64,000 bases of DNA from an uncultured Dehalococcoidales bacterium (GTDB lineage Bacteria; Chloroflexota; Dehalococcoidia; Dehalococcoidales; GCA-2688105): the NCBI GenBank assembly GCA_964499445.1, contig CAZCLE010000001.1:29615-93614 (forward strand). Reading direction: 5' to 3'. Position numbers and translations under genes: made by a program. Below are positions 8,671-24,318 of this stretch, piece after piece. The notes beneath the pieces are model-generated. The model saw only the letters and a list, made by a program, of their open reading frames with translations, was not told the origin of the DNA and searched no databases. Positions within the stretch are counted from its first letter, which is position 1. Each line of letters starts with the position of its first letter.

Positions 8671-8695
8671 CACTGATGGCTTTACTTGCTATGAG

Positions 8696-9400: not shown

Positions 9401-9406
9401 TTTACC

Positions 9407-9784: not shown

Positions 9785-12700
9785 TTTGGCTCACCGGCAA
9801 GTTTAAGCTAAACTTTGAGCCCTCCCCCAGCTTGCTCTCCACCCAGATTCTCCCACCGTGAGCCTTCATGATGCCCTGACAGATGGATAGCCCCAAGCCA
9901 GTCCCGCTTTTCCGACCGGTAACAACACTCTCAGTCTGATAGAAGCGGTCAAACACCCTGTCCAGAAGCTCAGGAGGGATGCCCTGACCCCTGTCGGTAA
10001 CACTAATAATAATCTGGTCCCCGGCAAGCTGCGCCTCAATTGTGATTGGGCTGTCCTTGCTGGAGAACTTGGTTGCATTTTCCACCATGTTGGTTATGAC
10101 CTGCCCGATGCGCATTTCGTCAACAAATACGGCAGGTAACTCTGCCGGGACTATCACCTCTAGTTGATGGTGCTCGGTGAGGCTAGCCAGCCTATCGCTA
10201 ACTGAGTCCAGTATCTCAGAAATCCGGTAGTCACCTTTCTCTAACTTCAATGCCCCAACATCAAGGCGTGACATATCCAGCAGGTCACTGATTAAGCTGG
10301 TGAGCCGGTCAGTCTCCTGGTCAATAGACTGAAGGAAGTCCCTCTGTTCCTCCTCACTCCACTTGACATCAGGCTGAAGCAGTGTGGTAGCAAAGCCCTT
10401 GATGGAAGCCAGCGGGGTGCGCAGTTCATGAGAAATGTTAGCCACTAGCTCAGACCGCAGCCGGTCAAGCTCCTTGAAGGCTTCTGCCTCCCGTAATTTC
10501 TCCTCCACCCGCTTTAACTCCTCCTCCCCTTCAGCACTAGCCAGAGCGTAGGCGACATCAGTGGCTAGTTCCCGGAACAACTCGTGCTCTTCCTCATCCT
10601 GAGCCATCTCGGGTGAAACAGAAACGCATACTATCCCGTAGACTCTACCTTCGTACTCCAACTGATTCACAAAGCCAACCCCGCCGCCCATAAAGCAGTC
10701 AGCCAGCACACACTCTATATGTTGTCTCTTAACATCATCGCAGGCGGTAAAAGGCGGCTCTTGCGCCAGTACTTCACGGACACACGGCGGGTATTCACCT
10801 CGCTTCATCTGCTCAAGGAGAATTGGGAAACTTTTTTCAGCGCCAGAACCCGCCGCTGAGATGTAGTTTCCATCTTCATCCAGGAGCAGCATCCAGGCAA
10901 TTGAGTAGCCGCGAGCCTCAACCAGGATGTTACAGCTCTGCTGAATCAGGCGCCCTTTATCCTTCTCATGAGCAATAAGCTGATTGATACTCCTGAGCGC
11001 CCTGAGCATATTGGTAAGATGTACGATTCGCGCCTCCGCCTGCTTGCGCTCGGTGATGTCCTCCAGAATTCCATCAAAGTATAGAATCTTGCCGGCATCG
11101 TCTCTCACCACAACTTTTGTACTCAGTACCACTATTTCAGTTCCATCCTTTTTCCTGAAGCGTAGCTCCTTGGCTACCTTCCCTTTACCCGAAGCTATTT
11201 CCTCAAGAACTCGTTCTCTTTCCTCTGGATGCACATACAGGTCAGAAACATTCATCTGCAGCAACTCTTTCCGGCGGTAGCCGGTAATCTTTTCCATAGC
11301 CGGATTTACTTCCAGGAACCTGCCGACGGGTTCTGGTGTGTTTCTAAATACCCCCAATTTAACGTTGCTAACCAGGCTTCTATACTTTTCCTCGCTCCCC
11401 CGTAACGTCTCCTCCGCCCGCTTGCGTTCGGTGATGTCCATTAATGAGGTAATGCTCTTTTTTGTTCTTGGAATAACCTCTACTATCAGAAATATGTCTT
11501 TTATATTTCCTTCCTTATCAAGGAAACGAAACTCATAATGGGTAGGTACCGCTTCTCCCCCTGGTTCCCTCCTCTTGACATGATACTGTTTCATCCGTTC
11601 CAGGTCTTCTTGGTGAACAAATTCCGTCCATCTCTTTTTACCTTCGATTTCCTCTCTGGAATACCCGCTCAATAACTCGAATCGATGGTTAGCTAGAGAG
11701 ATTGTAGTGTCCTCTTCAATAATTGCCATAGCAGTCCCGGTATGTTCAAATGTGGTTCTGTATCTCTGCTCGCTCTCCCGTAGTGCCTCCTCCGCCTGCC
11801 TGCGTTCGGTGATGTCGGTAAAGAATGAAAAGAAGTATTCTAAATCTCCTTTGCTATCGAAAATCGGGGTTGTGAAAACTTCCACCGGAACCAGGGAACC
11901 GTCCTTGCGGATGTATTCTTTCTCAAAGCGCTGTGGTTGTCGGGTACGAATTATTTCCTCCGCCGCCTTGGCCACGACCTCGCGCCACTCAGGAGGCGTG
12001 AGTTCCACATCCCACTTAAGTTCATGCAGCTCCCCCCTACTGTAGCCTAGCAGTTCACAGTAAGCAGTATTGAAAGTCCTTAGCCGTCCATCAGAGTAAC
12101 CTACAGCGAACGGCTGTGAAGAACTCTCTAGCACATTGGCAAGGAACTGCGCGTGCTCCTCAGCCTGCTTGCGCTCGGTGATATCCAGCACGCTCTCCAC
12201 AATGCCTATAATATCGCCGTTTACATCTCGAACCGGATAACCTCGTACAGACCACATTCTCCCGTCGGGGGTAGTCAGTTCCCCTTGCTGGGGTTGGTCG
12301 GTTTCAATGGCCTTGGCAATGGGGCACCCTACGCAAGGCTCACTACGCTGATGCCAGACCTCATAGCAATAGCGCCCCACCAATTGTGCAGGCGGCGTGT
12401 CTACCGATTCACCCGCAGCTCTATTCGCCCATATCAGCCGATGCTCCATATCCTGAAATACCACTAGCTCGCTCATGCTATCGAGAATGGCGGTTTTTTC
12501 CTGTTCAGTCCTTCTCAGCGCCTCCTCCGCCTGCTTGCGCTCGGTAACATTCCTCAGTACCTGAATAGCGCCGATAATCGTACCGTCGCTCTCCTTTAGC
12601 GGGGCTCCAATAGCCTCCCAATAGCTTTCACCCTGAGTGCCTGCCGCGACAGGTCGATAAACAACATCCGTTTCAATTTGCCCGGTCTTCATAGCCTTTA

Positions 12701-14045
12701 TAGTAGGGCAACCTTCGCAGGGTTCATCCCTCAACGCATAGGCTTTATAGCAGGGCTGCCCTACTGCATCAGGACTGCGGGTAAGGGCAGCTTTGTTTGC
12801 CCAGACAATCTTCAAGTTTCTGTCCACCTGTCGTATCACGTCTGGCGAACTGTCAAGCAGTGTCTGCAGTTGTGCCCTACTCTTCCTTAATTCTTCCTCT
12901 ATCTGCTTGCGCTCGGTGATGTCGGTAAATGTTCCCTGATAACCTATTACGTTCCCGCTTTCATCCTTGTCTACAACCGCTGTGATAAGAATGTTGATGA
13001 TACTGCCATCTTTCTTCCGGAAATCGACAGCTAAACCTTTAGCAAAGCCTTGTTGCTCAATTGCTTGGGTAATCCTTTCCCTTTCCTCCGGTTTTTCATA
13101 TAGTTCTAGTATTCTAACCTTTCTTAATTCGTTGCTATTTTCATAGCCAAGAAGCTCCACAGTAGCATCATTGAAGTCTATCCATCTACCATCTTTGGAA
13201 GTAATGAAAACGCAATCCCTCGATGTTCTGAAGAAGGTTCGGTATTTCTCCTCACTCTCCCGCAGCGCCTCCTCCGCCTGCTTGCGCTCGGTGATTTCAG
13301 CACGCAACTGTTCGTTGATTTTTGCAAGCTGGCTAGTCCGTTCCTCAACCCGTATTTCTAATTCGTCGTGAGCCTTTTGCAGCGCCTGTTCCACCTGCCG
13401 GCGTTGCAACGCTACCGATGCCAGCTTTATAAATGTCTCTATAAGGCTTTCTTCTCCCAACTGGGTTCCCTTGCGGGTAAGGATACTGGCACTGCCAAAC
13501 AGTTCTCCTTTCCAGACAAAACCCATAGCATATATGTCGCCCAAATCGAGCAGTTTTTCAATCGCACGGCAGACGGTCCTTGGTATTCTCCTAAAGGAAA
13601 ATTCGTACAAGCCTCCGGGGACCTTCTCTAGCTTACCACTACCGAGGCCGAGCCTCGCTTCGTCGTCTATCATGAGAGACATCCCAACCGGGTGCTTTCC
13701 CAAGATCCTAACAGCACTCCCCATCTTTCCGCCTACCCCCAAGACCGCGCGTACGCAGACATTATCAGTCGCCCCCTCGAACGAATTCACCAAGATAATA
13801 GAGTTGCCAACAAGCTCCCTTAACTGTCTTCCTATGAATTCGTAGATATCCTCTTCAGGCGAAAGCTCAAGAAAACCTATTGATGTCCTGGACAAAAATG
13901 CCAGGTCACGCATATACTTCTCGTCTTCCTTCGTCCGTTTGTCTGTGGTCGCTGAGCCTTCAAATTCAACAACGCGTCGGCGGATTTCCTCCAGTTCACA
14001 TATTAGTTGTTTCTTAGTTTTGCCACTGTTTTCCATTTCCCACAT
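9765..14045 (-). CDS. Large cytoplasmic multi-PAS/GAF sensor histidine kinase
   Basis: 1426 aa. At least 7 PAS-type modules are separated by ITERKQAEE-type linkers. It also has a GAF-like segment, an H-box (ISHELRTPLASIKGF) and HATPase boxes (NMVENATKF, DRGQGI, GTGLGLS). Confidence 0.9.
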   Translation of the reverse strand: MWEMENSGKTKKQLICELEEIRRRVVEFEGSATTDKRTKEDEKYMRDLAFLSRTSIGFLELSPEEDIYEFIGRQLRELVGNSIILVNSFEGATDNVCVRAVLGVGGKMGSAVRILGKHPVGMSLMIDDEARLGLGSGKLEKVPGGLYEFSFRRIPRTVCRAIEKLLDLGDIYAMGFVWKGELFGSASILTRKGTQLGEESLIETFIKLASVALQRRQVEQALQKAHDELEIRVEERTSQLAKINEQLRAEITERKQAEEALRESEEKYRTFFRTSRDCVFITSKDGRWIDFNDATVELLGYENSNELRKVRILELYEKPEERERITQAIEQQGFAKGLAVDFRKKDGSIINILITAVVDKDESGNVIGYQGTFTDITERKQIEEELRKSRAQLQTLLDSSPDVIRQVDRNLKIVWANKAALTRSPDAVGQPCYKAYALRDEPCEGCPTIKAMKTGQIETDVVYRPVAAGTQGESYWEAIGAPLKESDGTIIGAIQVLRNVTERKQAEEALRRTEQEKTAILDSMSELVVFQDMEHRLIWANRAAGESVDTPPAQLVGRYCYEVWHQRSEPCVGCPIAKAIETDQPQQGELTTPDGRMWSVRGYPVRDVNGDIIGIVESVLDITERKQAEEHAQFLANVLESSSQPFAVGYSDGRLRTFNTAYCELLGYSRGELHELKWDVELTPPEWREVVAKAAEEIIRTRQPQRFEKEYIRKDGSLVPVEVFTTPIFDSKGDLEYFFSFFTDITERRQAEEALRESEQRYRTTFEHTGTAMAIIEEDTTISLANHRFELLSGYSREEIEGKKRWTEFVHQEDLERMKQYHVKRREPGGEAVPTHYEFRFLDKEGNIKDIFLIVEVIPRTKKSITSLMDITERKRAEETLRGSEEKYRSLVSNVKLGVFRNTPEPVGRFLEVNPAMEKITGYRRKELLQMNVSDLYVHPEERERVLEEIASGKGKVAKELRFRKKDGTEIVVLSTKVVVRDDAGKILYFDGILEDITERKQAEARIVHLTNMLRALRSINQLIAHEKDKGRLIQQSCNILVEARGYSIAWMLLLDEDGNYISAAGSGAEKSFPILLEQMKRGEYPPCVREVLAQEPPFTACDDVKRQHIECVLADCFMGGGVGFVNQLEYEGRVYGIVCVSVSPEMAQDEEEHELFRELATDVAYALASAEGEEELKRVEEKLREAEAFKELDRLRSELVANISHELRTPLASIKGFATTLLQPDVKWSEEEQRDFLQSIDQETDRLTSLISDLLDMSRLDVGALKLEKGDYRISEILDSVSDRLASLTEHHQLEVIVPAELPAVFVDEMRIGQVITNMVENATKFSSKDSPITIEAQLAGDQIIISVTDRGQGIPPELLDRVFDRFYQTESVVTGRKSGTGLGLSICQGIMKAHGGRIWVESKLGEGSKFSLNLPVSQSEGQDG

Positions 14046-14143
14046 CCTGAAATCAGATTATAATGCCACTTAGCTATCTTGTAGCCCAAAATCGCCGTTT
14101 GTCAATAACTTGCCTTATCAGCTTGAGGATAAGATAACACCGA

Positions 14144-14353
14144 TTAGTTACTTTCAATGACCCGGTTGGCCTCTATCTCAAACCTATTTACTTCATCTTG
14201 AGTGAATAGCCTCCATCCTCTCCTATCCCGGTGTCTAGCTTCTTGGAGGACGCCTTCCTTGAGCCAGCGAAAGAAAGTAGTTCTACTCACTCCGATTATC
14301 CGGTAAACATCGGCAGTTCTATAATAGGTTTGACCATTTACTCTTACCGGCAT
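14144..14353 (-). CDS. Small MerR/excisionase-family HTH protein (HTH_17-like)
   Basis: 69 aa. YYRTADVYRIIGVSRTTFFRWLKEGVL...RGWRLFTQDEV is typical of the excisionase/MerR-like HTH. Confidence 0.6.
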   Translation of the reverse strand: MPVRVNGQTYYRTADVYRIIGVSRTTFFRWLKEGVLQEARHRDRRGWRLFTQDEVNRFEIEANRVIESN

Positions 14354-15108
14354 ACCCAGAGCCCTCCAACATTATTCAGGTATACCCTAATATATTCAGT
14401 CCGCTGAGTAAATGCCCTTTTAGTACCCCCACTAGGCATGACTTTAGTCCTACCTAGTTATGGCTCTGCCTCCTTCCGCGAAAAAGTTACGTACTGTGGG
14501 AAAGGCAAAAGGCTAAGCTGAAGTCTCTTTGTGCCTTTCTAGCCGTTTAAATTTGACTATAGTAGTTATTATTATACCACTTTTGCTACTTTGTCAATAT
14601 TTTATCATTTTTTAGTATCATTTCTAATCTTGTCCTCTACTTTTCTGATAGCCAGTAGGCAATCATGTTTTTTATCTACAGACATACCGGTAACTCCAGC
14701 TGGCAACAAGTTGCACACAACACGCTTTGTTGCTACAATTACTATAGAGGGGGAGAGGTGGGGGTCAAATATTGAGATTAAAGGCTGGTTTAGAAGTTCT
14801 ACCTAATTGCAACCGCAGCTCCGGGCATTCTCAGAATTGCCACCTGCCCGGGAACAGCCTTGCCTTAACACATTATCGTCTTCGCCATTGAGGTGAAAGA
14901 CATGACTACTTCCAGTGAGAGGGACACCGGCAAGATGAAGCCAATGACCCCGGTAGTTACTGATATGGTAACTGATAAGTTGGTAACTTCATCCCGGGTA
15001 TCTGTCCGTTTAGTGGCTATTCCCTTCAATCAGGAGGAAATGGCAACAAAGGCTTACTATAAAACAATTTGCCGGTCTGGATAAAATCTTGCCCAAGGAG
15101 GTAAAAAG

Positions 15109-17346
15109 ATGAAACCGATATTGATAGTAGATGACGAAGCTGTTATGAGAGAGTCTCTCCAAGACTGGCTGACTGACGGCGGTTATCAGGTGGAGACTGC
15201 CGGGGAGGGAGAGGAAGCGTTAGAAGCTATCGCCGAGCGGGACTTTGGTGTTGTCGTCCTTGACCTGAGGTTGCCGGGAAAGGACGGGATTGAGGTATTA
15301 CGAGAGGCTAGAGCGAAAAGACCGCAGCTCAAGGGAATCATTATCACCGCTTATCCTTCAGTGCCGACAGCGGTAGAGGCAATGAAGGAGGGGGCTATCG
15401 ATTATCTACCCAAACCCTTCGACCTTGATGACCTGGAGAAATTAATCCGGGAAACTCTGGGACCGGTGCAGGTAGAGATAAGACCAAAGGCCGCCCCTGA
15501 GACAGCTATAGCCGAACCGCCTGTAGCAGAGGAGGTAACGGAGGCAGAAGAACGGACACGGGTTGAGGAAGTGATTGATGAGGCTACGGGGAAAATATGC
15601 TTGCCTCCTTGTCAGATAGCCTGTCCTATTGGAGAGGACATTCAGCGCACTAATGCTATGATTGCGCTGCTTCCTCTGGATGCCGAGGAGGCTTCCAGCC
15701 AGATAATAAAGATAGGTGATGAAATTTATGAGAAGAACCCTCTATTCACGGTATGCAGCTATATTTGCGGGCTCTGTGAGAAGGAGTGCAATTACAAAGA
15801 CGAGACCGGAGCCATAAGACGAAAGATGCTCAAACGATTCCTCACCGATTTTTACCTTCCATATCTGGAAACCAAGCCCCCATTTCCCCAACCTACCCAG
15901 GAAAAGGTGGCTGTGATTGGTGGGGGACCGGCGGGGTTGATGTGTGCTTACATGCTGAGTAAAAACGGCTATCAAGCGACTATCCTGGAAAGGAGTCCCC
16001 AGTTAGGGGGAGCTTTGAGATACATCCCTCAATATCGTCTTCCCAGAGACATTGTGGATACTACTTTAAATAGTCTGGTAAGGATTGCCCATACTGATGT
16101 TGAATTCGGAGTGAAAATGGGCAACGGTGAAAAAACGTTGGATGACCTCAAGAATGAAGGCTACCGAGCTATATTCATTGCTACCGGCACCCCTTCTCCC
16201 CGGCCGCTCACCTTTGATGGGAAACCAGTAGCCGGAGCCGATCTGGACGGGGTTGCCTTCGGGTTATATCTCCTCATTGATGTGAACCAAGGTAGGGTTT
16301 CTCATCAGCTCCTTCGCCGGCTCTTTGAGGGTAAGAGGGTAATTGTAGTGGGCGGGGGCAATGTGGCCTTTGATGTGGCCAGAACCGCCCGGCGGCTCGG
16401 TGCCGAAGTTTCCCTTGTCTGCCTGGAATGTGAAAATAAATTAGCCAAGGACGGGATTCCAGCCGATGTAGAAGAGATAGAAGGTGCTAAAGAAGAAGGC
16501 ATAAAAATAGACTATTGCCGAGGTGTAGAAGAGATAATCGGAGAGGATGGAAAATTCAACAAAATAAAATGTCCCCGATGCACATCGGTCTTTGATGAAA
16601 GCGGATTCAATCCCAGGTTTGACCGAAATGATGTCATATATCTTGAGGGTGATGTACTGCTTATCACCATAGGGCAGGGTTCGGAGCGGACATTTTTCCA
16701 GCAGGAGGGCTTGCTGGATGAGAGAGGCAGGACTGATATTGACCGGCTTACTCTTATGAGCAATCGCCAAGAAGGAGTTTTCGTTGGCGGCGATGTCAGG
16801 CGGATAGGTCTCGCCGCAAACGCAATGAGAGACGGAATGATAGCCGCCGAGTCTATAGACCGCTACCTGAGGGGTGAGGACCTGCAAGCAGGCAGAGAAA
16901 AGGAGTATGAAGATGCTGCCATTCCCAAGCTTATGGATTACAAGCCTCAGCCTGAGTCGGAATGGGTACTGCTGGAAGAGCGGTTAAACTTTGAACTGTT
17001 TGAAAAAGGTTTCACCCTGGAAGAGGCGGTGAAAGAGGCCAGAAGGTGTCTGTGCTGTGGCCCATGTAAAAGCTGTAAAGCCTGTGTCGCCCTGGAACTT
17101 CAGCCTGAGATACCACCAATTGAAGTCAACCAAGATATATGTAGTGGGTGTGGAATTTGTGTCGCGGTATGTAGCTATGATGCCGCCAAACTGGTAAAAT
17201 CTAGTAACGGGCTGGTATCAGTTATAGATGACATTAAGTGTAAGCGATGCGGTGTATGTAGTGCTGCCTGCCCTATTGATGCCATTACCATTAAGCAGTT
17301 TACCACTGAGCAGATTATGGCTGAAATCGAGGGGATGCTGGTATAA
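15109..17346 (+). CDS. Receiver domain fused to a GltD/NfnB/SudA-like NAD(P)H-FAD oxidoreductase, with a C-terminal 2x[4Fe-4S] ferredoxin
   Basis: 745 aa. REC is ILIVDDE...VVVLDLRLPGKDG...YLPKPF. An N-terminal Fe-S motif (CLPPCQIACPIGEDI) is typical of glutamate-synthase small-chain-like proteins. Dinucleotide folds are VAVIGGGPAGL and VIVVGGGNVAFD. C-terminal motifs are CLCCGPCKSCKAC, CSGCGICVAVC and CKRCGVCSAACP. Confidence 0.85.
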   Translation: MKPILIVDDEAVMRESLQDWLTDGGYQVETAGEGEEALEAIAERDFGVVVLDLRLPGKDGIEVLREARAKRPQLKGIIITAYPSVPTAVEAMKEGAIDYLPKPFDLDDLEKLIRETLGPVQVEIRPKAAPETAIAEPPVAEEVTEAEERTRVEEVIDEATGKICLPPCQIACPIGEDIQRTNAMIALLPLDAEEASSQIIKIGDEIYEKNPLFTVCSYICGLCEKECNYKDETGAIRRKMLKRFLTDFYLPYLETKPPFPQPTQEKVAVIGGGPAGLMCAYMLSKNGYQATILERSPQLGGALRYIPQYRLPRDIVDTTLNSLVRIAHTDVEFGVKMGNGEKTLDDLKNEGYRAIFIATGTPSPRPLTFDGKPVAGADLDGVAFGLYLLIDVNQGRVSHQLLRRLFEGKRVIVVGGGNVAFDVARTARRLGAEVSLVCLECENKLAKDGIPADVEEIEGAKEEGIKIDYCRGVEEIIGEDGKFNKIKCPRCTSVFDESGFNPRFDRNDVIYLEGDVLLITIGQGSERTFFQQEGLLDERGRTDIDRLTLMSNRQEGVFVGGDVRRIGLAANAMRDGMIAAESIDRYLRGEDLQAGREKEYEDAAIPKLMDYKPQPESEWVLLEERLNFELFEKGFTLEEAVKEARRCLCCGPCKSCKACVALELQPEIPPIEVNQDICSGCGICVAVCSYDAAKLVKSSNGLVSVIDDIKCKRCGVCSAACPIDAITIKQFTTEQIMAEIEGMLV

Positions 17347-17375
17347 GCTTTAAACCAAAGGAAGTCGGGTTAACC

Positions 17376-18473
17376 ATGGAACAAATCCAGTCCTTGCAGA
17401 TGCGGCAGGAGCTAACACAAATCCTCCGGATGGAACAGGCTAACCTGCTGGAGATGCCTGAGGATGAGTTTAACAGGCTAATCACCGAGATGGAGCAGGG
17501 TCCCCTTTTCCGAAGGCTATACCAGAGAGAAAAGCTAATCTGCCATCAGAGATTTCCCAGAACTGATATTTCCTCTGGTTTTTATCAACTCAAAGAAGAG
17601 ATAGCAGCCGATACAGGCTCTGTGGATGTTGAATCTCTTCTGCTGAACAAAGAGTATATCGTCCGTCAAATACAGAAACTAGGGCTGGAGAAATTCAAAC
17701 AGTATTTCCTGTTCTCCGAACCAGCGATGACCCTGGAACAAATCGCCAGAGAGTGCGACCTGGAGGTCGCCGAGGTTCAGACGATAAACAACCTTATTGA
17801 TGAATTCTCTATTATGAGTGAGTTTTATCATCCCTCTAATGTCACCTCAGGCGACATTCACTATTCCAAGGTTGCCTCGGTGGAGAAGGATGAGAAGGGT
17901 TTTATTATCGGCTATTTTTCAGCTTCTTTCGCCCGAGGTCGGTATGCGATTAATTATGAAAGATTTGAGGAGTTAAGAACGGCAGGTGCGTTCACCGAAA
18001 CTGAAATCAAGGAAGCCAGACAGTTATTCAAGAGGCTGGAACTAATCAATAGCCGTAAGGATACACTAACTCAGATACTGCAAAATATTATTGACAAGCA
18101 GGCACTCTACCTAGAGTCTGGTGATTTGAAGTCTCTTTTATCCTTCAGTCAAAAGGAGCTAGCCGAAAAAATTGGACTGGCTCCGAGCTCAGTCAGTCGT
18201 GCTATAAGAAGCAAAAGTATAGACACCCCCTGGGGTAGAGAAGTCCCTCTAAAATACTTCTTCCCCAGGCCAAAGAGGTTCAGGAAGGAACTGCTCAGGC
18301 AGCTCCTTGAAACCGATAATGGACTTTCCTCAGACGAGGCAATACGGACCAAGCTCTGGGAGAAATTTGGCGTGGCCATCTCCCGGCGCTCGGTAGCCAA
18401 CTTGAGGAAGGAACTTAAGTTTCCTGCAGCCCACGGAAAACGGCATCCTATCCAGAGGAGGCAGACAAGATGA
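17376..18473 (+). CDS. Short, divergent RNA polymerase sigma-54 (RpoN)-like factor
   Basis: 365 aa. The Gln/Leu-rich N-terminus LQMRQELTQILRMEQANLLEMPEDEFNRLITEMEQGPLF resembles region I. ELAEKIGLAPSSVSRAIRSKSIDTPWGREVPLKYFF resembles the sigma-54 HTH plus the (E)LKYFF segment. ISRRSVANLRKEL resembles the RpoN box ARRTVAKYRE. It is shorter than typical RpoN, and the middle core-binding part was not confidently recognised. Confidence 0.6.
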   Translation: MEQIQSLQMRQELTQILRMEQANLLEMPEDEFNRLITEMEQGPLFRRLYQREKLICHQRFPRTDISSGFYQLKEEIAADTGSVDVESLLLNKEYIVRQIQKLGLEKFKQYFLFSEPAMTLEQIARECDLEVAEVQTINNLIDEFSIMSEFYHPSNVTSGDIHYSKVASVEKDEKGFIIGYFSASFARGRYAINYERFEELRTAGAFTETEIKEARQLFKRLELINSRKDTLTQILQNIIDKQALYLESGDLKSLLSFSQKELAEKIGLAPSSVSRAIRSKSIDTPWGREVPLKYFFPRPKRFRKELLRQLLETDNGLSSDEAIRTKLWEKFGVAISRRSVANLRKELKFPAAHGKRHPIQRRQTR

Positions 18474-20428
18474 GTGTTGTTTACACCGAGCGAGAAAAGT
18501 GCAAAGGATGCTATACCTGCATACGTAACTGCCCAGCTAAGGCAATCAGGGTAAGAGAGGGCTTGGCTGAAGTGATAAAGGAACGCTGTATCGCCTGCGG
18601 CATCTGCGTCCAGATCTGCATGGCAAAAGCAAAGCTAGCAGAGAGCGACACAGGAATAGTTTGGCAACTACTGGGAGGGGAGGAACCGGTAATTGCTATG
18701 CTTTCATCTCCATTTCCCGCCGCCTTTCCCGAAGTTCGCCCGAGGCGGTTGGTAACCGCCCTGAAAAAACTGGGGTTTAGTGAGGTGATGGAGGATTCCT
18801 TCGGTGCCGAGCTCGTCTGCCGTGAATATGCCCGCCTTATAAAGGAAAACAGTGATAAACCTATCCTCTCATCTACCTGTCCCGCAGTAGTGTCCTACAT
18901 TGAGAAGCACTATCCCCAGCTCATCGATAATCTGGCACCCACTGCTTCCCCCATGATAGCTATGGGTAGAGTGATTAAACGGCAGTATAATCCGCAGGCT
19001 AAGGTGGTCTTCATTGGTCCTTGCGTGGCTAAGAAAGCTGAGGCTAAGGATGAGAATGTTGCCGGGGTGGTGGACGCCGTCCTGACCTTTGCTGAGATGA
19101 AGGAGATGTTCGCCGCTAAAGGTATCAATCCCGAAACTGAGGAAGAAGGTCAATTCTCGGGGCCTAAGCCCAACCTGGGTCGCCTGTTCGCCATAACCGG
19201 GGGACTGCTCAAGATAGCCGGACTTTCCGATGACATCATAGCCAATGAAATTATCAATGCCTGTGGCCGGGACTATACGCTGAATATCGTTCGGGAGTTT
19301 GCCGAAGGCAATATCACTGCCAGGTTCATCAGCCTATGTTTCTGTGAAGGCTGTATTGACGGGCCGGTCATTGATAATGACCTAAGCATTTTTAAACGAA
19401 GGGAAATAATCAGCAATTATACTCTAAGCCAGTCAGACCCGACTCAGACCGAGAGGGACATAAAGGAGTATGCTAGCATTGACCTCAACCGCAAATTTAC
19501 CCACCGAGGTGTCGGCCTGCCGACGCCCAATGAGGAAGATGTTCAACGGGTTTTAAAGAAAATTGGCAGGGTGGACCCCCACTACCGAATGAATTGTGGT
19601 GCTTGTGGCTATAGCGGTTGCCGAGAGCTGGCAGTCGCTGTCTGTCAGGGTCTAGCTGAGACTGAAATGTGCTGGCCGTACGTGCTTGAGAAGTTGAGGA
19701 CTACTCAAGAAGAGTTAATCCAAGCTGAGAAACTGACCTCTCTGGGTCAGATGGCAGCCTCTATTGCTCATGAGGTTAATAATCCTCTGGCTGGCGTCCT
19801 CGTCTATACCCAATTGTTGGCTAAAAAGATAGCTGGTGACAAATTCTCCAAAGAGGTTGCTCTTGACTACCTATCGAAAATGGAACCGGAACTCACTCGC
19901 AGCACCAGGTTAATCCGAGGCCTTCTGGATTTCGCCCGACAGTCGCCCCCAACCCTCAGGGAGGTGAACCTCAACGAGGTCATTAACCGAGCCCTTGACC
20001 TCGCGGCTCATTCAGCTAAGCTACAGCATATCCAGATAATAAAAGAGCTCAACCCCTCCTTGCCTGAGCCCATGGCTGACTTTGACCAGCTTCAACAGGT
20101 CTGTGCCAACCTTATTATGAATGCTATCCAGGCAATGTCTGAAGGCGGCATGCTAACCCTCCGCACCTCAGTCGCTAACGATAGTCAGCTCAAGATAGAG
20201 GTTCAGGATACCGGTTGTGGCATTTCTCAGGAAAATATGCGCAAGCTGTTCACCCCCTTCTTCACCACTAAGGGAAAGGGAAAGGGGGTAGGTCTGGGTC
20301 TGGCGGTGGCCTATGGAATTATCCAGCGCCATCACGGCAAGATAGAAGTGCAAAGTAAGGAGGGAGAGGGTACTACCTTCACCATCCGCCTACCCCGGCA
20401 CCACGGGAAAAGGCCAGAAGATAAATAG
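18470..20428 (+). CDS. Sensor histidine kinase with an N-terminal 2x[4Fe-4S] ferredoxin, a [FeFe]-hydrogenase large-subunit-like (H-domain-like) domain and a putative Fe-S (CxxC...C...C) domain
   Basis: 652 aa. CKGCYTCIRNCP and CIACGICVQIC form the ferredoxin part. Hydrogenase-like motifs are SSTCPAVV (vs TSCCP), GPCVAKKAE (vs MPCxxKxxE) and LCFCEGCIDGP (vs MxCxxGCxxG). MNCGACGYSGCRELAVAVCQG...C follows. The transmitter has H-box SIAHEVNNPL, NLIMNAIQA, DTGCGI and GVGLGLA. Confidence 0.8.
   Translation: MSVVYTEREKCKGCYTCIRNCPAKAIRVREGLAEVIKERCIACGICVQICMAKAKLAESDTGIVWQLLGGEEPVIAMLSSPFPAAFPEVRPRRLVTALKKLGFSEVMEDSFGAELVCREYARLIKENSDKPILSSTCPAVVSYIEKHYPQLIDNLAPTASPMIAMGRVIKRQYNPQAKVVFIGPCVAKKAEAKDENVAGVVDAVLTFAEMKEMFAAKGINPETEEEGQFSGPKPNLGRLFAITGGLLKIAGLSDDIIANEIINACGRDYTLNIVREFAEGNITARFISLCFCEGCIDGPVIDNDLSIFKRREIISNYTLSQSDPTQTERDIKEYASIDLNRKFTHRGVGLPTPNEEDVQRVLKKIGRVDPHYRMNCGACGYSGCRELAVAVCQGLAETEMCWPYVLEKLRTTQEELIQAEKLTSLGQMAASIAHEVNNPLAGVLVYTQLLAKKIAGDKFSKEVALDYLSKMEPELTRSTRLIRGLLDFARQSPPTLREVNLNEVINRALDLAAHSAKLQHIQIIKELNPSLPEPMADFDQLQQVCANLIMNAIQAMSEGGMLTLRTSVANDSQLKIEVQDTGCGISQENMRKLFTPFFTTKGKGKGVGLGLAVAYGIIQRHHGKIEVQSKEGEGTTFTIRLPRHHGKRPEDK
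19724..20332 (+). repeat. Copy 1 of a 609-bp duplicated transmitter module (DHp + CA)
   Basis: It reads base-for-base the same as 20997-21605 (offset 1273) where I compared the lines. The encoded 200+ aa are identical in the ORF track. One mismatch sits just upstream (19723 A vs 20996 G), and similarity decays after 20332/21605. Confidence 0.85.
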
Positions 20429-20444
20429 TTGAGTAAGGTTCTTA

Positions 20445-21701
20445 ATGGAAGAGACTATAACAACCAAACCTACCCTAAAAAGCACCCTGCAGCGCTGGGA
20501 AGAAAGCATAGTAACCAGAGTTGCGGAATGGTTGCCACAGAGCGACACCAGGGGTGTGCGAAGCCCTCACTTGTGGATAATCACGGCTCTAATGGCACTT
20601 GGCACGGTCATTTACTATATAGACCAGACCCCCCTGGTTAGCGTGCCACCATTTAATTACAGCTTTTTTACTAGTGTCCATGACCTGCATCGAACATTAT
20701 TTTTCATTCCTATAATCTACGCGGCGCTGGTATTCAGGGTTCGGGGAAGCCTAATCGCTTCCTTCGTTTTTCTCGGCGTGGTGTTGCCACGTGCCCTGCT
20801 ATTCTCCCCCTATCCCGACCCACTACTCAGGCCACTTCTCCTTGTCGCCTTGGCCACTTTTGTCACTCTGTTAATAGCGACACAGCTTAATCGAATTGAA
20901 AGGGAAAGAAAGGCTCGCGCTGAACTGAGCACAGCCTACCAGGAGCTTAGCGAATATGACCAGCGGCTGAGAGAAAGCCAGGAGCAACTAATCCAGGCTG
21001 AGAAACTGACCTCTCTGGGTCAGATGGCAGCCTCTATTGCTCATGAGGTTAATAATCCTCTGGCTGGCGTCCTCGTCTATACCCAATTGTTGGCTAAAAA
21101 GATAGCTGGTGACAAATTCTCCAAAGAGGTTGCTCTTGACTACCTATCGAAAATGGAACCGGAACTCACTCGCAGCACCAGGTTAATCCGAGGCCTTCTG
21201 GATTTCGCCCGACAGTCGCCCCCAACCCTCAGGGAGGTGAACCTCAACGAGGTCATTAACCGAGCCCTTGACCTCGCGGCTCATTCAGCTAAGCTACAGC
21301 ATATCCAGATAATAAAAGAGCTCAACCCCTCCTTGCCTGAGCCCATGGCTGACTTTGACCAGCTTCAACAGGTCTGTGCCAACCTTATTATGAATGCTAT
21401 CCAGGCAATGTCTGAAGGCGGCATGCTAACCCTCCGCACCTCAGTCGCTAACGATAGTCAGCTCAAGATAGAGGTTCAGGATACCGGTTGTGGCATTTCT
21501 CAGGAAAATATGCGCAAGCTGTTCACCCCCTTCTTCACCACTAAGGGAAAGGGAAAGGGGGTAGGTCTGGGTCTGGCGGTGGCCTATGGAATTATCCAGC
21601 GCCATAAAGGTAGAATAGGAGTGCAAAGTAAGGAGGGGGAGGGTACTACCTTTACCATCTATCTACCATTGCACCATGAAGAACATGAAGAAAAAGGCTA
21701 A
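20445..21701 (+). CDS. Membrane-bound sensor histidine kinase (about 4 TM segments), whose transmitter is identical to that of the preceding kinase
   Basis: 418 aa. Hydrophobic segments are HLWIITALMALGTVIYYI, LFFIPIIYAALVF, LIASFVFLGVVL and LLLVALATFVTLLIA. A coiled coil follows, then the same LIQAEKLTSLGQMAASIAHEVNNPL...GLAVAYGIIQRH block as ORF 18470-20428. Confidence 0.85.
   Translation: MEETITTKPTLKSTLQRWEESIVTRVAEWLPQSDTRGVRSPHLWIITALMALGTVIYYIDQTPLVSVPPFNYSFFTSVHDLHRTLFFIPIIYAALVFRVRGSLIASFVFLGVVLPRALLFSPYPDPLLRPLLLVALATFVTLLIATQLNRIERERKARAELSTAYQELSEYDQRLRESQEQLIQAEKLTSLGQMAASIAHEVNNPLAGVLVYTQLLAKKIAGDKFSKEVALDYLSKMEPELTRSTRLIRGLLDFARQSPPTLREVNLNEVINRALDLAAHSAKLQHIQIIKELNPSLPEPMADFDQLQQVCANLIMNAIQAMSEGGMLTLRTSVANDSQLKIEVQDTGCGISQENMRKLFTPFFTTKGKGKGVGLGLAVAYGIIQRHKGRIGVQSKEGEGTTFTIYLPLHHEEHEEKG
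20997..21605 (+). repeat. Copy 2 of the 609-bp duplicated transmitter module
   Basis: See 19724-20332. Confidence 0.85.
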
Positions 21702-23046
21702 AATCCTAGTGGTTGATGATGAAGTCATTATCCGCGAGTCGCTCCGTGACTGGCTCAGCGATGTCGGGCACCTAGTGCTTACCGCAGAGAACGGTCCCCA
21801 GGCTCTGGAGATTATCCAAAAGGAGAAACCAGCCGTCGCTATTGTTGATTTGGTAATGCCCGGGATGGACGGGATTGAACTACTAAAGAGAGCCAGGGAA
21901 ATATCGCCCAGCATTGAGGTGGTCATCATCACTGCCTATGGCAGTATCCCCACGGCTATTACTGCCATGAGGGAAGGCGCCTATGACTACATCGAGAAGC
22001 CCTTCTGCCCGGAAAAGGTAGAGCTGTTGATTGAGAAACTGGTGGAACATCAACGGCTAATCGAGGAGAACATTTCCCTGCACCAGAAATTAGAGGAGCG
22101 CTACCAATTCCAGAATATCATTGCCAAGAGCCCCAAGATGCAGCAGGTAATCGAGGTAATTAAGGTCGTCGCCAAGAGTAATGCTACGGTGTTGATTGTT
22201 GGTGAGAGTGGTACCGGTAAGGAACTTGTCGCCCGAGCCATCCACTCCCAGAGCTACCGTAAGGATAAGCCGTTTATCGCCGTCAGTTGCGCTGCTTTGC
22301 CGGAGACTCTCCTTGAGAGTGAGCTATTCGGACATGAGAAGGGCTCCTTTACCGGGGCTCATGCTCAACGGAGGGGGAAATTTGAAATCGCTAACAAAGG
22401 CTCCCTCTTCCTGGATGAGATTGGTGAGATGAGTGCCAATATCCAGGTTCACCTGCTCCGAGTCTTGGAGGAGAAGGAATTCACCAGAGTTGGCGGCAAT
22501 GAGCTAGTTAAGGTCGATGTAAGGGTCATCTCAGCGACCAATAAGGACATAAAAAGAGCCATAGCCAATGAGCAGTTTCGGGAGGACCTTTACTACCGAC
22601 TCAACGTGGTTACTATTGAATTGCCACCGTTGAGAGAGAGGAAGGAGGATATTCTCCTCTTAGCCCAGCACTTCCTAAAAAAGTTTGCTGTGGAAAATCA
22701 AAAGGAGATTACCAGCTTCTCTGCCGAGGCTACTGATTTTCTTTTGAAATATGAGTGGCCGGGTAATGTCCGAGAACTGGAAAATGCTGTTGAAAGGGCG
22801 GTCATCTTAGCCAAAAATTCTTATATTGAGATTACTGACCTGCCCCAGGAAAGCTTAACATTGGCTCACTCATCTCCATCAGGGAAAAGCCTGGAAGAAA
22901 TCGAGAAAAACCATATCCTGAATATACTCAACGAAACCGGTGGAAACTATAGTAAAGCGGCTAGAATCATGGGGATTTCCAGAATGACGCTTTACAACAA
23001 GGTTAGGGCATATGGATTAGATGTAAATAAAATAGACAGTAACTGA
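21676..23046 (+). CDS. NtrC-family sigma-54-dependent response regulator (REC + AAA+ + Fis-type HTH)
   Basis: 456 aa. ILVVDDE...VAIVDLVMPGMDG is the receiver. Walker A is GESGTGKE, and ESELFGHEKGSFTGA is the GAFTGA-type sigma-54 contact loop. LFLDEIGEM and the C-terminal GNYSKAARIMGISRMTLYNK HTH are also present. It overlaps the upstream kinase by 26 nt. Confidence 0.9.
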   Translation: MKNMKKKAKILVVDDEVIIRESLRDWLSDVGHLVLTAENGPQALEIIQKEKPAVAIVDLVMPGMDGIELLKRAREISPSIEVVIITAYGSIPTAITAMREGAYDYIEKPFCPEKVELLIEKLVEHQRLIEENISLHQKLEERYQFQNIIAKSPKMQQVIEVIKVVAKSNATVLIVGESGTGKELVARAIHSQSYRKDKPFIAVSCAALPETLLESELFGHEKGSFTGAHAQRRGKFEIANKGSLFLDEIGEMSANIQVHLLRVLEEKEFTRVGGNELVKVDVRVISATNKDIKRAIANEQFREDLYYRLNVVTIELPPLRERKEDILLLAQHFLKKFAVENQKEITSFSAEATDFLLKYEWPGNVRELENAVERAVILAKNSYIEITDLPQESLTLAHSSPSGKSLEEIEKNHILNILNETGGNYSKAARIMGISRMTLYNKVRAYGLDVNKIDSN

Positions 23047-23089
23047 CTAACTCTTTTACAATTAAAACTTCCGCTTAAAGCAAACATTT

Positions 23090-23125
23090 AGGCTATCCTG
23101 ACCATTCAAGATAGCCTTTTCTTTT
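23090..23125 (+). terminator. Hairpin plus T-run after the NtrC-type gene (alternatively a palindromic protein-binding site)
   Basis: AGGCTATC (23090-23097), a 12-nt loop, GATAGCCT (23110-23117), then TTTTCTTTT. Confidence 0.4.
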
Positions 23126-23140
23126 GGCAAGAAAATTGCA
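23125..23140 (+). promoter_or_regulatory. Sigma-54 (-24/-12) promoter candidate
   Basis: TGGCAAGAAAATTGCA, with GG at 23126-23127 and GC at 23138-23139. This is the canonical 12-nt register of TGGCAC-N5-TTGCA. The predicted TSS near 23150 leaves a leader of about 65 nt with AGGAGGAGG before ATG 23217. Confidence 0.5.
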
Positions 23141-23216
23141 TCTAAATAGGGTGGAGGTGATAGAAATGGAAAAGCAGGCAGTCCTAAAGGAAGAGAAAAT
23201 AGGAGGAGGTGGAAAG

Positions 23217-24245
23217 ATGAAACCGATATTGATAGTAGAGGATGAAGTCATTATGAGAGAGTCTCTCCGAGATTGGCTGACTGACAGCGGTTATCACGTG
23301 GAGACTGCTGAGGAAGGAGAGGAAGCGTTAAAAACTATTGCCGAGCGGGACTTTGGTGTTGTCATCCTTGACCTGAGGTTGCCGGGAAAGGACGGGATTG
23401 AGGTACTAAGAGAGGCCAAGGAGAAAAGACCGCAGCTTAAGGGAATCATTATCACCGCTTATCCTTCGGTGCCGACAGCGGTAGAGGCGATGAAGGAGGG
23501 GGCTATTGATTATCTACCCAAACCCTTCGACCTTGATGACCTGGAAAAATTAATCCAGGGCACTCTGGGACCGGTTCAGGTAGAGATAAGACCAAAGGCT
23601 GTTACTGAAGAAGCTGTGGCTGAACCACCTGTAGTAGAGGAGGCTAAGGTTGAGGAGGTCATAGCCGTAGCTCCGGAGGAAATCCCGGTTCACCTCAAGC
23701 AAGGCAAGGCTCACTTTGAGGCTTGTAACTACCGGGAGGCTCTTAAGGAGTTTGAGGCTGTCATCGCCGTGGCTCCGGGCAGCATTGAGACCCGTGTCTG
23801 GATACGAAAGACCCATGAAGCACTAACCAAGCCCAAGGTTGAGGGGGTAGTTGAAGGGGAAGCGGCTCCTGTCGCTGAGGAAGCCAAGCCAAAGGAGTGC
23901 CTGTGGATGAAGCTGGGGATGGTTTCTTACCGCATCTGCACCAATGACTACAACTGTCTCACCTGCGAGTTTGACCAGACGATGCAGGAGAAGATGGCTA
24001 GTGGTGAAGCTCCAGAGCTTGATGCCGCACTGGAAAGATTTAAGGCACTACCTGGAAATCAGAGGCTCTGCCGCTATGCCCTTAAGGGCGATGTCTCATA
24101 CCGGATTTGCACCCGCCTCTTCCAGTGTGACACCTGCGAGTTTGGTCAAATGATGGAGGATGCCCTCCAGCAGAAACTGGCTAAGCTGGCGACACGACGG
24201 GAGGCCCTGCTCAAAAAGGAGCAAAAAGCTGAAGCCAAAGCGTAA
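23217..24245 (+). CDS. Response regulator: a receiver, a helical (TPR-like) linker, and two copies of a C-X12-C-X5-C-X2-C motif
   Basis: The ORF track starts at 23124. I prefer ATG 23217 (MKPILIVEDE, AGGAGGAGG upstream), which parallels ORF 15109. The receiver is about 90% identical to that of ORF 15109. C-terminal motifs are CLWMKLGMVSYRICTNDYNCLTCEF and CRYALKGDVSYRICTRLFQCDTCEF. Confidence 0.8.
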   Translation: MKPILIVEDEVIMRESLRDWLTDSGYHVETAEEGEEALKTIAERDFGVVILDLRLPGKDGIEVLREAKEKRPQLKGIIITAYPSVPTAVEAMKEGAIDYLPKPFDLDDLEKLIQGTLGPVQVEIRPKAVTEEAVAEPPVVEEAKVEEVIAVAPEEIPVHLKQGKAHFEACNYREALKEFEAVIAVAPGSIETRVWIRKTHEALTKPKVEGVVEGEAAPVAEEAKPKECLWMKLGMVSYRICTNDYNCLTCEFDQTMQEKMASGEAPELDAALERFKALPGNQRLCRYALKGDVSYRICTRLFQCDTCEFGQMMEDALQQKLAKLATRREALLKKEQKAEAKA

Positions 24246-24281
24246 ATAAAGCACCTTTGGACTGCGAAGATATAGCTAAGA

Positions 24282-24318
24282 AGATATACGCTCCAACAAG
24301 CGTATATCTTTTATTTCA
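24282..24318 (+). terminator. Rho-independent terminator closing the regulatory cluster
   Basis: AGATATACGC (24282-24291), an 8-nt loop, GCGTATATCT (24300-24309), then TTTTATTT. Confidence 0.55.

Follow-up and report, generated by a model that had tools for sequence, protein, structure and literature searches.

A predicted hierarchical sigma54 two-component circuit with two sensor kinases and one conserved promoter in uncultured Dehalococcoidia

What might a bacterium do with a cluster of genes that brings together a hydrogenase-like sensor kinase, a membrane kinase, an NtrC-type activator, a sigma54-like factor of its own and two proteins in which a receiver is fused to a presumed redox or metal module, and is there an order in which these parts act? 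The question is raised by a stretch of 64,000 nucleotides from an uncultured Dehalococcoidales bacterium (assembly GCA_964499445.1, contig CAZCLE010000001.1, positions 29,615 to 93,614; here called the window, with coordinates counted from its first letter), a sequence also found in the NCBI assembly GCA_007279795.1. Six plus strand open reading frames (ORFs) span 15109-24245. Gene 1 (15109-17346, 745 amino acids, aa) joins a receiver domain (REC) to a GltD/NfnB-like oxidoreductase and heads a presumed operon; gene 2 (ORF2, 17376-18473, 365 aa) encodes a compact sigma54 family protein; gene 3 (ORF3, 18470-20428, 652 aa) a cytoplasmic hydrogenase-like sensor histidine kinase; gene 4 (20445-21701, 418 aa) a membrane histidine kinase; gene 5 (ORF5, 21676-23046, 456 aa) an NtrC-type bacterial enhancer-binding protein; and gene 6 (23166-24245, 359 aa) a REC-Cys-rich response regulator. 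The original prediction had placed these six same-strand genes, two internal repeats, a closing terminator and a -24/-12 element where they are found, and its domain assignments for all six genes agree with Pfam and NCBIfam. We favour, at a probability of roughly 0.7, a hierarchical sigma54 two-component circuit with possible feedback, in which genes 1-5 and gene 6 would form two transcription units and the second would be the target of the first.

The evidence for two units lies between genes 5 and 6. Genes 1 to 5 follow one another closely (spacings of +29, -4, +16 and -26 nt) and are uninterrupted, no intervening feature having come from a hairpin scan, nor from Rfam and transfer RNA (tRNA) scans, which were negative over the whole of 13.5-26.5 kb. 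Behind gene 5 a hairpin at 23090-23117 and its U-run make up a plus strand terminator of operon 1 (23090-23124) that abuts the -24 element of the gene 6 promoter (-13.6 kcal/mol, z = -4.65, none of 200 shuffles being equally good). Across genomes its stem is maintained by compensatory changes (aggctatcc/ggatagcct, acgctaccc/gggtagcgt, aggctgtcc/ggacagcct, ggccgcctccc/gggaggcgg) with a T-run always following, and therefore the hairpin is taken to be a real terminator of the activator operon. The single compact six-gene unit that had been proposed, and with it a six-gene operon, is ruled out by this conserved terminator and promoter. Gene 6 is itself closed by a plus strand terminator at 24279-24318, a 14-bp stem followed by a U-rich tail, of which the hairpin (24279-24312) scores -17.5 kcal/mol and z = -6.10, again with 0 of 200 shuffles equally good.

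The promoter, TGGCAAGAAAATTGCA at 23125-23140 on the plus strand, has its GG at 23126-23127 and its GC at 23138-23139, with a predicted transcription start at about 23150. By itself such an element is not significant, the window holding 7 loose matches with 4.2 expected; it becomes significant because 30 of 33 related species-level genomes carry a strict TGGCA-N6-TTGC within 250 nt upstream of the REC-Cys-rich gene, mostly as TGGCAAGAAAATTGCA. Including near-variants or operon position the count is 32 of 33, there being a one-base variant in L029 and a looser one in L056 (L numbers denote related loci), and the gene in L040 following a REC-GltD gene which carries the site. The promoter first pointed out from the window alone is thus present, functional-looking and backed by conservation. 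A weight matrix trained on the orthologous sites, which may miss promoters with other spacers, finds a single strong site in the window, with 33.9 bits; the runner-up has 13.0. Over about 850 kb, both strands, and counting every Dehalococcoidia locus with a callable downstream ORF, sites of at least 15 bits stand before REC-Cys-rich genes, before REC-GltD (L018, L040) and before a stand-alone Cys-rich gene (L054), the single exception being a site in the Elusimicrobia locus L055 before an unrelated ketoacyl-synthase gene. A further candidate, TGGCA(T/A)A(G/A)CCTTTGCT in four loci, was set aside as part of a hairpin GCAAAGG...CCTTTGC.

Downstream of the promoter, GGAGG at 23153-23157 and the ATG at 23166 are conserved in most loci. 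Gene callers mostly chose the alternative ATG at 23214, giving 343 aa; the upstream methionine is the sole candidate start in homologues such as L073, and a TTG start at 23124 is excluded since it overlaps the promoter. Because a terminator follows the activator and a conserved promoter follows the terminator, gene 6 is read as a sigma54 target and not just as a parallel output, and so the three parallel outputs that had been envisaged give way to an order in which REC-Cys-rich is the conserved transcriptional target of the NtrC/sigma54 arm, insulated by the terminator.

How far this arrangement extends was seen in a one-genome-per-species scan that yielded 49 loci, annotated with the window's domains. 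The core of compact sigma54, kinase or kinases, NtrC-type activator and REC-Cys-rich protein occurs in about 45 Dehalococcoidia species-level genomes, nearly all the relatives being labelled as Dehalococcoidales or Dehalococcoidia metagenome-assembled genomes (MAGs), and the synteny suggested by the window is therefore widespread. What varies is the sensor and the accessory genes. Most loci have a hydrogenase-type kinase, both types are found in L018, L021 and the window, and the membrane type occurs alone in L009, L011, L014, L016, L025, L030, L032, L034, L041 and L053. REC-GltD is found also in L018, where it comes after the activator, and in L040. The closest relative, L011 (sigma54 93%, activator 93-99% and membrane sensor 57% identical to those of the window), has neither the hydrogenase-kinase nor REC-GltD, and therefore even near neighbours differ in a mosaic way in their accessory genes. 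About 20 loci have an HdrA-like protein of ~1110 aa no more than 10 kb away, accompanied in L007 and L009 by HdrB/C-like proteins and in L009 also by MvhD-like, [NiFe]-hydrogenase and HycI genes; contigs of the more distant members (1.3-3.4 kb) give little context beyond one more HycI neighbour. As judged from these genomes, the cassette is lineage-wide in uncultured Dehalococcoidia and is not a one-off recent assembly.

The activator, gene 5, has Response_reg (PF00072), Sigma54_activat (PF00158, 8.5e-75), AAA_lid_14 (PF25601) and HTH_8 (PF02954), with GSFTGA, the sigma54-contacting loop, at residue 223; its NCBIfam matches are AtoC/NtrC/ZraR-like with every score under the equivalog cutoff, and so it is not a named orthologue. 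In relatives it always comes after the kinase or kinases. An inverted repeat, TGTAAA-N27-TTTACA (23022-23060), spans its stop codon about 100 bp upstream of the -24 element, and GTAAA-N26/27-TTTAC is found at 26 of 37 related promoters, 99-182 nt upstream, against a background of 0.012 per 220 nt. It occurs also in L040, where no activator gene precedes it. The repeat would be a candidate activator-binding site (an upstream activating sequence), although common descent and constraint on the coding sequence account for part of the signal.

Which kinase would speak to which receiver is suggested by the two internal repeats. Both kinases carry one common transmitter, as had been predicted: 19716-20332 and 20989-21605 (plus strand) are an exact repeat, of 617 bp where 609 bp had been given, which begins about 15 codons before the phospho-accepting histidine, covers the whole DHp/CA transmitter, and is continued at about 80% identity to the 3' ends of both genes. 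The complete identity stands for the window but not for L001 (NCBI) and L002 (ENA), two further assemblies of the organism, which match the window over about 13 kb save for two stray mismatches in L001 and differ from it within the repeat at 16 and 11 positions, all inside 19804-20275. That the identical or near-identical modules are largely an artefact, the reads of two diverged paralogues having been collapsed in assembly, is a real prospect if one somewhat short of even odds, and this for the last 2-3% of identity only; it would account for differences that gather inside the repeat of otherwise essentially identical contigs, and for both of these short-read contigs ending in or at the repeat. 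Against it, the copies in L001 and L002 are still at least 97% identical, and comparable likeness within a genome is seen in unrelated assemblies for transmitters (98% in L018, 86% in L021) and for receivers (99% in L018, 84% in L040). The near-identity is therefore biological and the last 2-3% alone is in doubt, being either a collapse in the window assembly or strain-level conversion; the true paralogue identity of the transmitters is at least 97%.

The receivers of genes 1 and 6 behave in the same way. They had been put at about 90% identical at the DNA level, and 15096-15395 is indeed 91% identical to 23204-23503, falling to 89% over 450 nt when receiver and linker are taken together (15096-15545 and 23204-23653, plus strand). 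At the protein level the two transmitters are 94% identical in the window, a figure to be set beside about 80% between genomes, and in the three genomes having both kinases they are each other's closest relatives, the hydrogenase and membrane types intermingling in a kinase tree by genome lineage and not by sensor type. REC-GltD and REC-Cys-rich receivers likewise find their nearest kin in each other inside a genome, being 88% identical within the window and 66-82% between genomes. Homogenisation thus recurs independently in other genomes, and the pattern indicates what would be recurrent concerted evolution, or else one transmitter/receiver pair to which inputs and outputs have been swapped time and again, and not a single recent shuffle. 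The view of the cluster as recently shuffled modules holds for the homogenisation or swapping of transmitters and receivers and for the gain, loss and position of accessory genes; it does not hold for the four-gene core or for the REC-GltD fusion, which are old and widespread. A recent local origin of that fusion is ruled out by full-length REC-GltD homologues of ~740 aa in more than 115 clusters at 65-88% identity. Such homogenisation offers a clean natural example of specificity kept while inputs and outputs are exchanged.

A third indication comes from the alpha1 helix, for which the motif (I/M)RESL(R/Q)DWL(S/T)D is confirmed in all three receivers. Between activator and effector receivers, alpha1 is 72.5% identical and the rest of the domain 46.7% (33 genomes), alpha1 being the best-conserved stretch in a sliding profile. 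Together with the common transmitter this supports the view that both kinases may serve all the receivers.

Taken together these features suggest the following route. Unit 1 (genes 1-5) would be read, presumably, from a sigma70-type promoter in the 1-kb gap upstream, and would end at the hairpin terminator. In the gene 3 protein an Fe-S relay would end about 30 residues before the phospho-accepting histidine, and the redox or ligand state of its H-cluster (most likely via H2), along with some signal at the membrane, would set the autokinase activity of the two kinases, both of which would phosphorylate the activator. The activator would bind near the end of its own gene and remodel a closed complex of RNA polymerase with the compact sigma54, and unit 2 (gene 6) would then be transcribed from the -24/-12 promoter. 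The receivers of REC-GltD and of the gene 6 protein have the kinase-facing alpha1 helix in common and would probably be phosphorylated by the same kinases, in which case induction of gene 6 would both drain phosphoryl groups, so giving feedback, and yield a phosphorylation-gated effector. The effector is most likely an Fe-S or metal protein because the promoter and receiver are joined elsewhere to GltD-like, NuoE-like and Cys-rich modules and because the cassette usually adjoins HdrA-like, HdrBC, MvhD or [NiFe]-hydrogenase genes. Within this scheme the sequences themselves show which genes are there and with what domains, the conservation of synteny, promoter and terminator, and the homogenised modules, and it is the signal, the phosphotransfer partners, the activator site, the effector function and the unit 1 promoter that we infer.

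A number of points weigh against the scheme. Gene 1 has no upstream sigma54 promoter in the window by either strict regular expression or weight matrix, unlike REC-GltD genes elsewhere, and by the same two methods none is found before HdrA-like or hydrogenase operons within the 10-kb flanks; the link of the cassette to Hdr and hydrogenase operons is by neighbourhood only. The conservation of alpha1 is suggestive of common partners and is not proof of them. Ten genomes have only the membrane kinase, and so the cassette is not tied to the hydrogenase-like sensor, while the sensor domain of gene 3 may carry Fe-S clusters alone and sense redox, O2 or CO instead of H2. For the compact sigma54, the Pfam models of the activator-interacting and core-binding (PF04963) domains give no match and the rpoN equivalog score is about one third of its cutoff. 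A structural model of the gene 6 protein built with 30 homologues has a pLDDT (the predicted local distance difference test score) of 47.6, the receiver too being poor.

The sensing function of gene 3 can be argued residue by residue. Its Pfam domains are, in order, Fer4 (2x[4Fe-4S]), Fe_hyd_lg_C (2.6e-52), FeS (PF04060, 2.2e-08), HisKA and HATPase_c. Set against solved HydA chains it keeps the equivalents of C300, C355, K358, E361, C499 and C503, and the four H-cluster cysteine ligands and the K358/E361 equivalents do not vary among 33 orthologues that reach down to 50% identity. The equivalent of C299, the catalytic proton relay, is threonine (N or T in all 33 orthologues and never Cys), that of M353 is glycine (G in the 33 orthologues, with S in one), and the M497 position is occupied by cysteine (H, Y, F or C in the orthologues). 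At the C-terminal end of the sensor lies a Cx2Cx4Cx16C motif, CGACGYSGCRELAVAVCQGLAETEMC, the cysteines of which are invariant in the 33 orthologues. Loss of C299, altered M353 and M497 and a C-terminal cluster have all been reported for the putative sensors TmHydS and TamHydS (PMC8163306). There is no PAS match in gene 3 with Pfam, HisKA starting about 25 residues past the last cysteine of the C-terminal cluster. Gene 3 thus has four of the five sequence hallmarks of HydS-type sensory [FeFe]-hydrogenases, a PAS domain being the fifth, and in lacking the latter it is more like group D, or like a kinase-fused form not yet classified. HydDB lists its subgroup C1 as "histidine kinase-linked (putative)" (PMC5037454), and group C [FeFe]-hydrogenases in Chloroflexi are a catalogue entry in a preprint (bioRxiv 10.1101/2021.08.23.457424).

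A less likely alternative keeps the same circuit and differs in what gene 3 reports: lacking the [2Fe] subcluster, or using the cluster site differently, its domain would rely on its four or five Fe-S clusters to read out the redox state of the cell, O2, CO or Fe-S status. It fits the absence of the proton-relay cysteine from 33 of 33 orthologues and the replacement of M353 and M497, the absence of H-cluster maturase genes from the 64-kb window, the ten genomes that run the cassette on the membrane kinase alone, and a literature that still terms group C/D [FeFe]-hydrogenases "putative" sensors (PMC5037454, PMC8163306). However, the invariance of the four cysteine ligands and the K358/E361 equivalents at such divergence is hard to explain without a cofactor, the same substitutions occur in HydS enzymes that bind an H-cluster and react with H2 (PMC8163306), and [NiFe]-hydrogenase and HycI genes neighbour the cassette. 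The chances that H2 is the signal of the gene 3 sensor seem to us a shade better than even.

Gene 4, the other input, combines HisKA and HATPase_c with an N-terminal part of ~150 aa having several hydrophobic helices and no large extracytoplasmic loop; hydropathy marks about residues 85-150, and another stretch near 43-60 can be read from the sequence. Searched alone at E <= 10 this sensor part finds no Pfam or NCBIfam family. The best NCBIfam matches of the transmitter are AtoS and ZraS, both below equivalog cutoffs. The domains of genes 3 and 4 accordingly support the original picture of a self-contained sigma54/two-component cluster in which one sensor kinase has a hydrogenase-like metallocluster domain and the other sits in the membrane.

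On the output side, gene 1 matches Response_reg (1.1e-29), Fer4_20 (PF14691), Pyr_redox_2 (PF07992, 3e-34), PF00070 (two stretches) and Fer4 in Pfam, which amounts to a Fer4_20 domain for 2x[4Fe-4S], FAD/NAD(P)H Rossmann domains and a C-terminal 2x[4Fe-4S] ferredoxin. Its score against NCBIfam PRK12771 is 331 bits with a cutoff of 516, and the assignment as a GltD/NfnB-like Fe-S flavoprotein is made at family level only, on domain content. The ~1110-aa HdrA-like proteins that neighbour the cassette in relatives match the GltD part with their C-terminal half at 47-57% identity, and in L018, L040, L128 and L140 REC-GltD lies under a sigma54 promoter.

Gene 6 has Response_reg (6.4e-31), a linker, TPR-like helices, two C-x12-C-x5-C-x2-C repeats and a basic C-terminal helix. 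Its C-terminal 190 aa, searched alone at E <= 10, give no Pfam or NCBIfam family beyond a weak TPR_2 match, and all eight cysteines are invariant in 30 homologues; of the 384 homologues some have REC (~335 aa) and the others stand alone (~208 aa). The cysteines probably bind Fe-S or another metal, with an output on electron transfer and not on DNA, mainly because the promoter/receiver unit joins redox-cofactor modules, and the gene 6 effector is most likely an Fe-S (or metal) protein acting on electron-transfer complexes.

That portability is seen when the exact 18-mer TTTGGCAAGAAAATTGCA is searched for in metagenome contigs. It returns 80 loci, being about 46 cassettes, about 31 chance matches in unrelated DNA and three loci with a second type of activator; in cassettes with enough flank the activator lies upstream and the downstream gene is mostly REC-Cys-rich. 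The promoter drives REC-GltD in L128 and L140; a receiver with a NuoE-type [2Fe-2S] domain (PF01257, 8.9e-46) in L073 and L024 (4513-5517); a receiver with a different duplicated cysteine motif, C-x2-C-x8-C-x7-C, in L141; a Fer2_4 protein in which just the first 8 codons of the receiver remain, in L074; and aldehyde:ferredoxin oxidoreductase in L123. The receiver with its promoter is, on this comparison, a portable unit joined to different redox-cofactor modules, and the varied downstream products point to redox-module outputs. The three loci of the second type (L075, L110, L120) have another activator, 47% or 57-60% identical to ORF5, upstream of an identical TTTGGCAAGAAAATTGCA, followed by sequence with no homology to window genes in which there may be a convergent gene; they could be a second sigma54 target class.

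Two further sets of genes touch on these outputs. Relatives often have, next to the cassette, a third receiver paralogue of about 205-230 aa that the window lacks; it forms its own clade, has RESVRDWL in alpha1 and in its C-terminus shares 38-50% identity with the Cys-rich domain (for example L009 12400-13017, L014 1509-2186, L020 12247-12867, L021 11926-12543, L053 5043-5660). On the minus strand of the window, 59993-63118 holds a HydBC/NuoEFG-like module, with a NuoE-like gene at 62582-63118, a NuoF-like gene at 60672-62585 and a 224-aa Fer2_4 plus NADH-G Fe-S protein at 59993-60667; no H-cluster or other catalytic subunit lies alongside, the next gene being an adenine deaminase. The receiver-fused redox proteins may dock onto this module.

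A bolder version of the hierarchical circuit can be stated, which we regard as speculative and rather doubtful. It would be a fully self-contained sigma54 module, perhaps the only one of the cell, with a compact ~365-aa sigma54, a single activator and in essence a single promoter, that on an H2 or redox signal sensed by the kinase-fused [FeFe]-hydrogenase delivers receiver-fused Cys4x2, GltD-like and NuoE-like modules; phosphorylation would gate their docking onto flavin-based bifurcating complexes (Hdr/Mvh, NuoEF-like) or their activity in them. Were it so, there would be a new class of response-regulator output, with direct post-translational rewiring of electron flow, and the first [FeFe] sensory hydrogenase with a complete and readable signalling pathway.

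Is the compact protein of gene 2 a sigma factor? Whether ORF 17376 would match sigma54 profiles at all had been seen as decisive for the original proposal, and it does: Pfam Sigma54_DBD (PF04552) is matched at 7.7e-21 (74.9 bits, cutoff 22.8). Against TIGR02395 it scores 89.8 bits with a cutoff of 277, model positions 189-432 alone being covered. A profile of ORF2 homologues finds sigma54 chains in the PDB at E = 8e-13 over the C-terminal half, from the long helix through the helix-turn-helix (HTH) to the RpoN box, and in the alignment to E. coli sigma54 residues 313-476 ISRRSVANLRKEL falls on the RpoN box. An AlphaFold model of moderate confidence (pLDDT 61) has as its top 25 Foldseek matches only sigma54 (E down to 1e-7), with alignments of ~430 columns covering the whole protein. 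The N-terminus, MEQIQSLQMRQELTQILRMEQANLLEMPEDEF...GPLF, reads as region I-like, a Q/L-rich helix ending ExxxPLF and nearly invariant in 17 homologues. It is followed by a presumed core-binding region, divergent or reduced, and then by the long helix, HTH and RpoN box; acidic region II is absent. Close homologues number 712, with conservation of 73-93% across hundreds of them, and at E <= 1e-30 the family falls into 193 clusters at 50% identity, whose representatives align end to end and have, with few exceptions, 340-395 aa. ORF2 would thus belong to a distinct compact branch of sigma54 without region II, and its binding of core RNA polymerase is putative. A cognate -24 GG/-12 GC promoter (the 30 of 33 genomes above) and a co-encoded activator accompany this type of protein, which does not prove that ORF2 is the factor used.

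It seems quite unlikely that ORF2 is instead a sigma54-derived DNA-binding regulator sitting on TGGCA-N6-TTGCA without recruiting core, or a non-functional remnant, gene 6 being read by a sigma54 encoded elsewhere: only its DNA-binding domain passes a curated threshold, its N-terminal 205 aa searched alone find no Pfam family even at E <= 10, a sigma54 DBD-like domain has been reused in L011 in fusion with a GIY-YIG-like domain, and at about 35 aa less it is shorter than the shortest well-studied sigma54 (that of Aquifex, 398 aa), but the full-length fold matches are to sigma54 chains only, the region I-like N-terminus is nearly invariant, the type is conserved at 73-93% across hundreds of homologues and always occurs with an activator bearing the sigma54-contacting loop and with a -24/-12 promoter, and distant Elusimicrobia relatives show the same arrangement.

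The fusion protein of L011 (1053-2402, minus strand, divergent from its cassette) is a 449-aa ORF with a sigma54-DBD-like middle, about 30-35% identical to compact sigma54s, and a C-terminus that reads as a GIY-YIG nuclease motif (GIYELRL...YIGSG); with its DBD-like domain joined to such a C-terminus it is ruled out as a second, canonical rpoN. The compact sigma54 may be the sole sigma54 of the cell. In the Elusimicrobia MAGs L055 and L058, compact sigma54 homologues (42% and 31% identity) adjoin an NtrC-type activator, and TGGCA-N6-TTGC stands in L055 before ketoacyl synthase, ICMT-like methyltransferase and B12-radical SAM genes and in L058 before a small protein and a TPR protein, which suggests that compact sigma54 genes may generally travel as sigma/activator/promoter cassettes.

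The surroundings in the window are those of an ordinary chromosome (thiamine and pyridoxal phosphate synthesis, H+-pyrophosphatase, tRNA synthetase, GreA). The 1-kb gap ahead of gene 1 (14046-15108) holds several sigma70-like hexamer pairs and a 69-aa excisionase/MerR-like HTH gene (14144-14353, minus strand), called in the NCBI record and a weak MerR_1 match; in L005 a serine recombinase directly follows the cassette. Such features may be remnants of the rearrangements by which REC-GltD came to stand first in the operon. Directly upstream and divergent, a separate two-component cluster (7478-14045, minus strand) has a 1426-aa multi-PAS/GAF histidine kinase (9765-14045), a single-domain receiver, an OmpR-type regulator (8696-9400) and a truncated HisKA protein (7478-8125); its receivers are just 33-38% identical to those of the cassette and were not retrieved by RESLxDWL-bearing receiver queries. 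Further away, at 52001-54000, the G+C content falls to 0.36 from about 0.50 elsewhere over a DNA methylase-domain ORF (52243-53580) and an unassigned opposite-strand 420-aa ORF, a stretch that was probably acquired as a restriction-modification or mobile island.

Anoxic sediments and aquifers harbour abundant Dehalococcoidia, and the cultured members that respire organohalides use H2 as their electron donor, and so how H2 or redox is perceived in this lineage matters. For the cassette the pathway can be read from conserved genome structure, namely an activator, a dedicated sigma factor, one promoter and one target. The claim of novelty stands in that no characterised homologous cluster was found in a literature search; nor did a paper linking Dehalococcoidia, sigma54 and hydrogenase appear in it, most subscription journals lying outside the searched literature.

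Set beside known systems, the cassette is closest in the architecture of its activator and transmitter to AtoS/AtoC, ZraS/ZraR and NtrB/NtrC, which have an identical REC-AAA+-HTH_8 arrangement and provide the best NCBIfam matches. It differs from these in its inputs, in three receivers with one alpha1 signature and in a sigma factor encoded in the operon. With canonical RpoN, the short Aquifex aeolicus protein known from structures included, ORF2 shares the long helix, HTH, RpoN box and overall fold, as well as a TGGCA-N6-TTGCA cognate promoter, and its N-terminus reads as region I-like. In contrast ORF2 has 365 aa, no acidic region II and a core-binding region missed by Pfam and NCBIfam models, and the ~360-aa proteins to which it belongs make up a family of their own (193 clusters at 50% identity). 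A sigma54 family of ~365 aa would define the minimum of core-binding region that is needed and would provide a naturally orthogonal set of sigma, activator and promoter.

The full cofactor-binding domains of GltD/NfnB/SudA-type Fe-S flavoproteins and of NuoE-type [2Fe-2S] subunits are also present in gene 1 and in REC-NuoE (L073/L024) respectively. Where these families serve in bifurcating hydrogenases and Hdr complexes, the members in the cassette are receiver-fused. Receivers joined to GltD-like, NuoE-like and Cys-rich modules suggest control of electron-transfer proteins by phosphorylation, of which no description, and none of receiver-fused GltD or NuoE proteins, was found in the literature searched, most subscription journals again being outside it.

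With the HydS proteins of groups C/D, from Thermotoga maritima and Thermoanaerobacter mathranii, gene 3 shares an N-terminal 2x[4Fe-4S] domain, the retained ligands, the lack of C299 and the Cx2Cx4Cx16C C-terminal cluster, and with TmHydS the change of M353 to glycine. It differs from them in having no PAS domain, with DHp/CA straight after the C-terminal cluster, and in a downstream pathway of activator, sigma54, promoter and target that is readable from genomes. The direct transmitter fusion without PAS, and a readable downstream pathway for a sensory [FeFe]-hydrogenase, are new. Sensory [FeFe]-hydrogenases have stayed "putative" for over a decade because nothing was known downstream of them, and the cassette offers a pathway that can be tested.

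The nearest parallel in logic is with the H2-sensing regulatory hydrogenase systems HoxBC-HoxJ-HoxA of Cupriavidus necator and HupUV-HupT-HupR of Rhodobacter capsulatus, in which a low-activity hydrogenase sensor acts through a histidine kinase on an NtrC-family regulator, with sigma54-dependent transcription in C. necator. HydDB places the sensor of this type in [NiFe] group 2b, "histidine kinase-linked" (PMC5037454). The cassette follows the same sequence of hydrogenase sensor, kinase, NtrC-family regulator and sigma54. However, its sensor is an [FeFe]-type domain that shares a single polypeptide with the kinase, without PAS, it encodes its own compact sigma54 paralogue and a second, membrane kinase with the same transmitter, and its conserved target is a single response-regulator gene and not a hydrogenase operon. 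Sigma54 two-component systems and sensory hydrogenases are thus familiar parts, and it is their conserved wiring, together with the receiver-fused redox outputs, that appears to be new.

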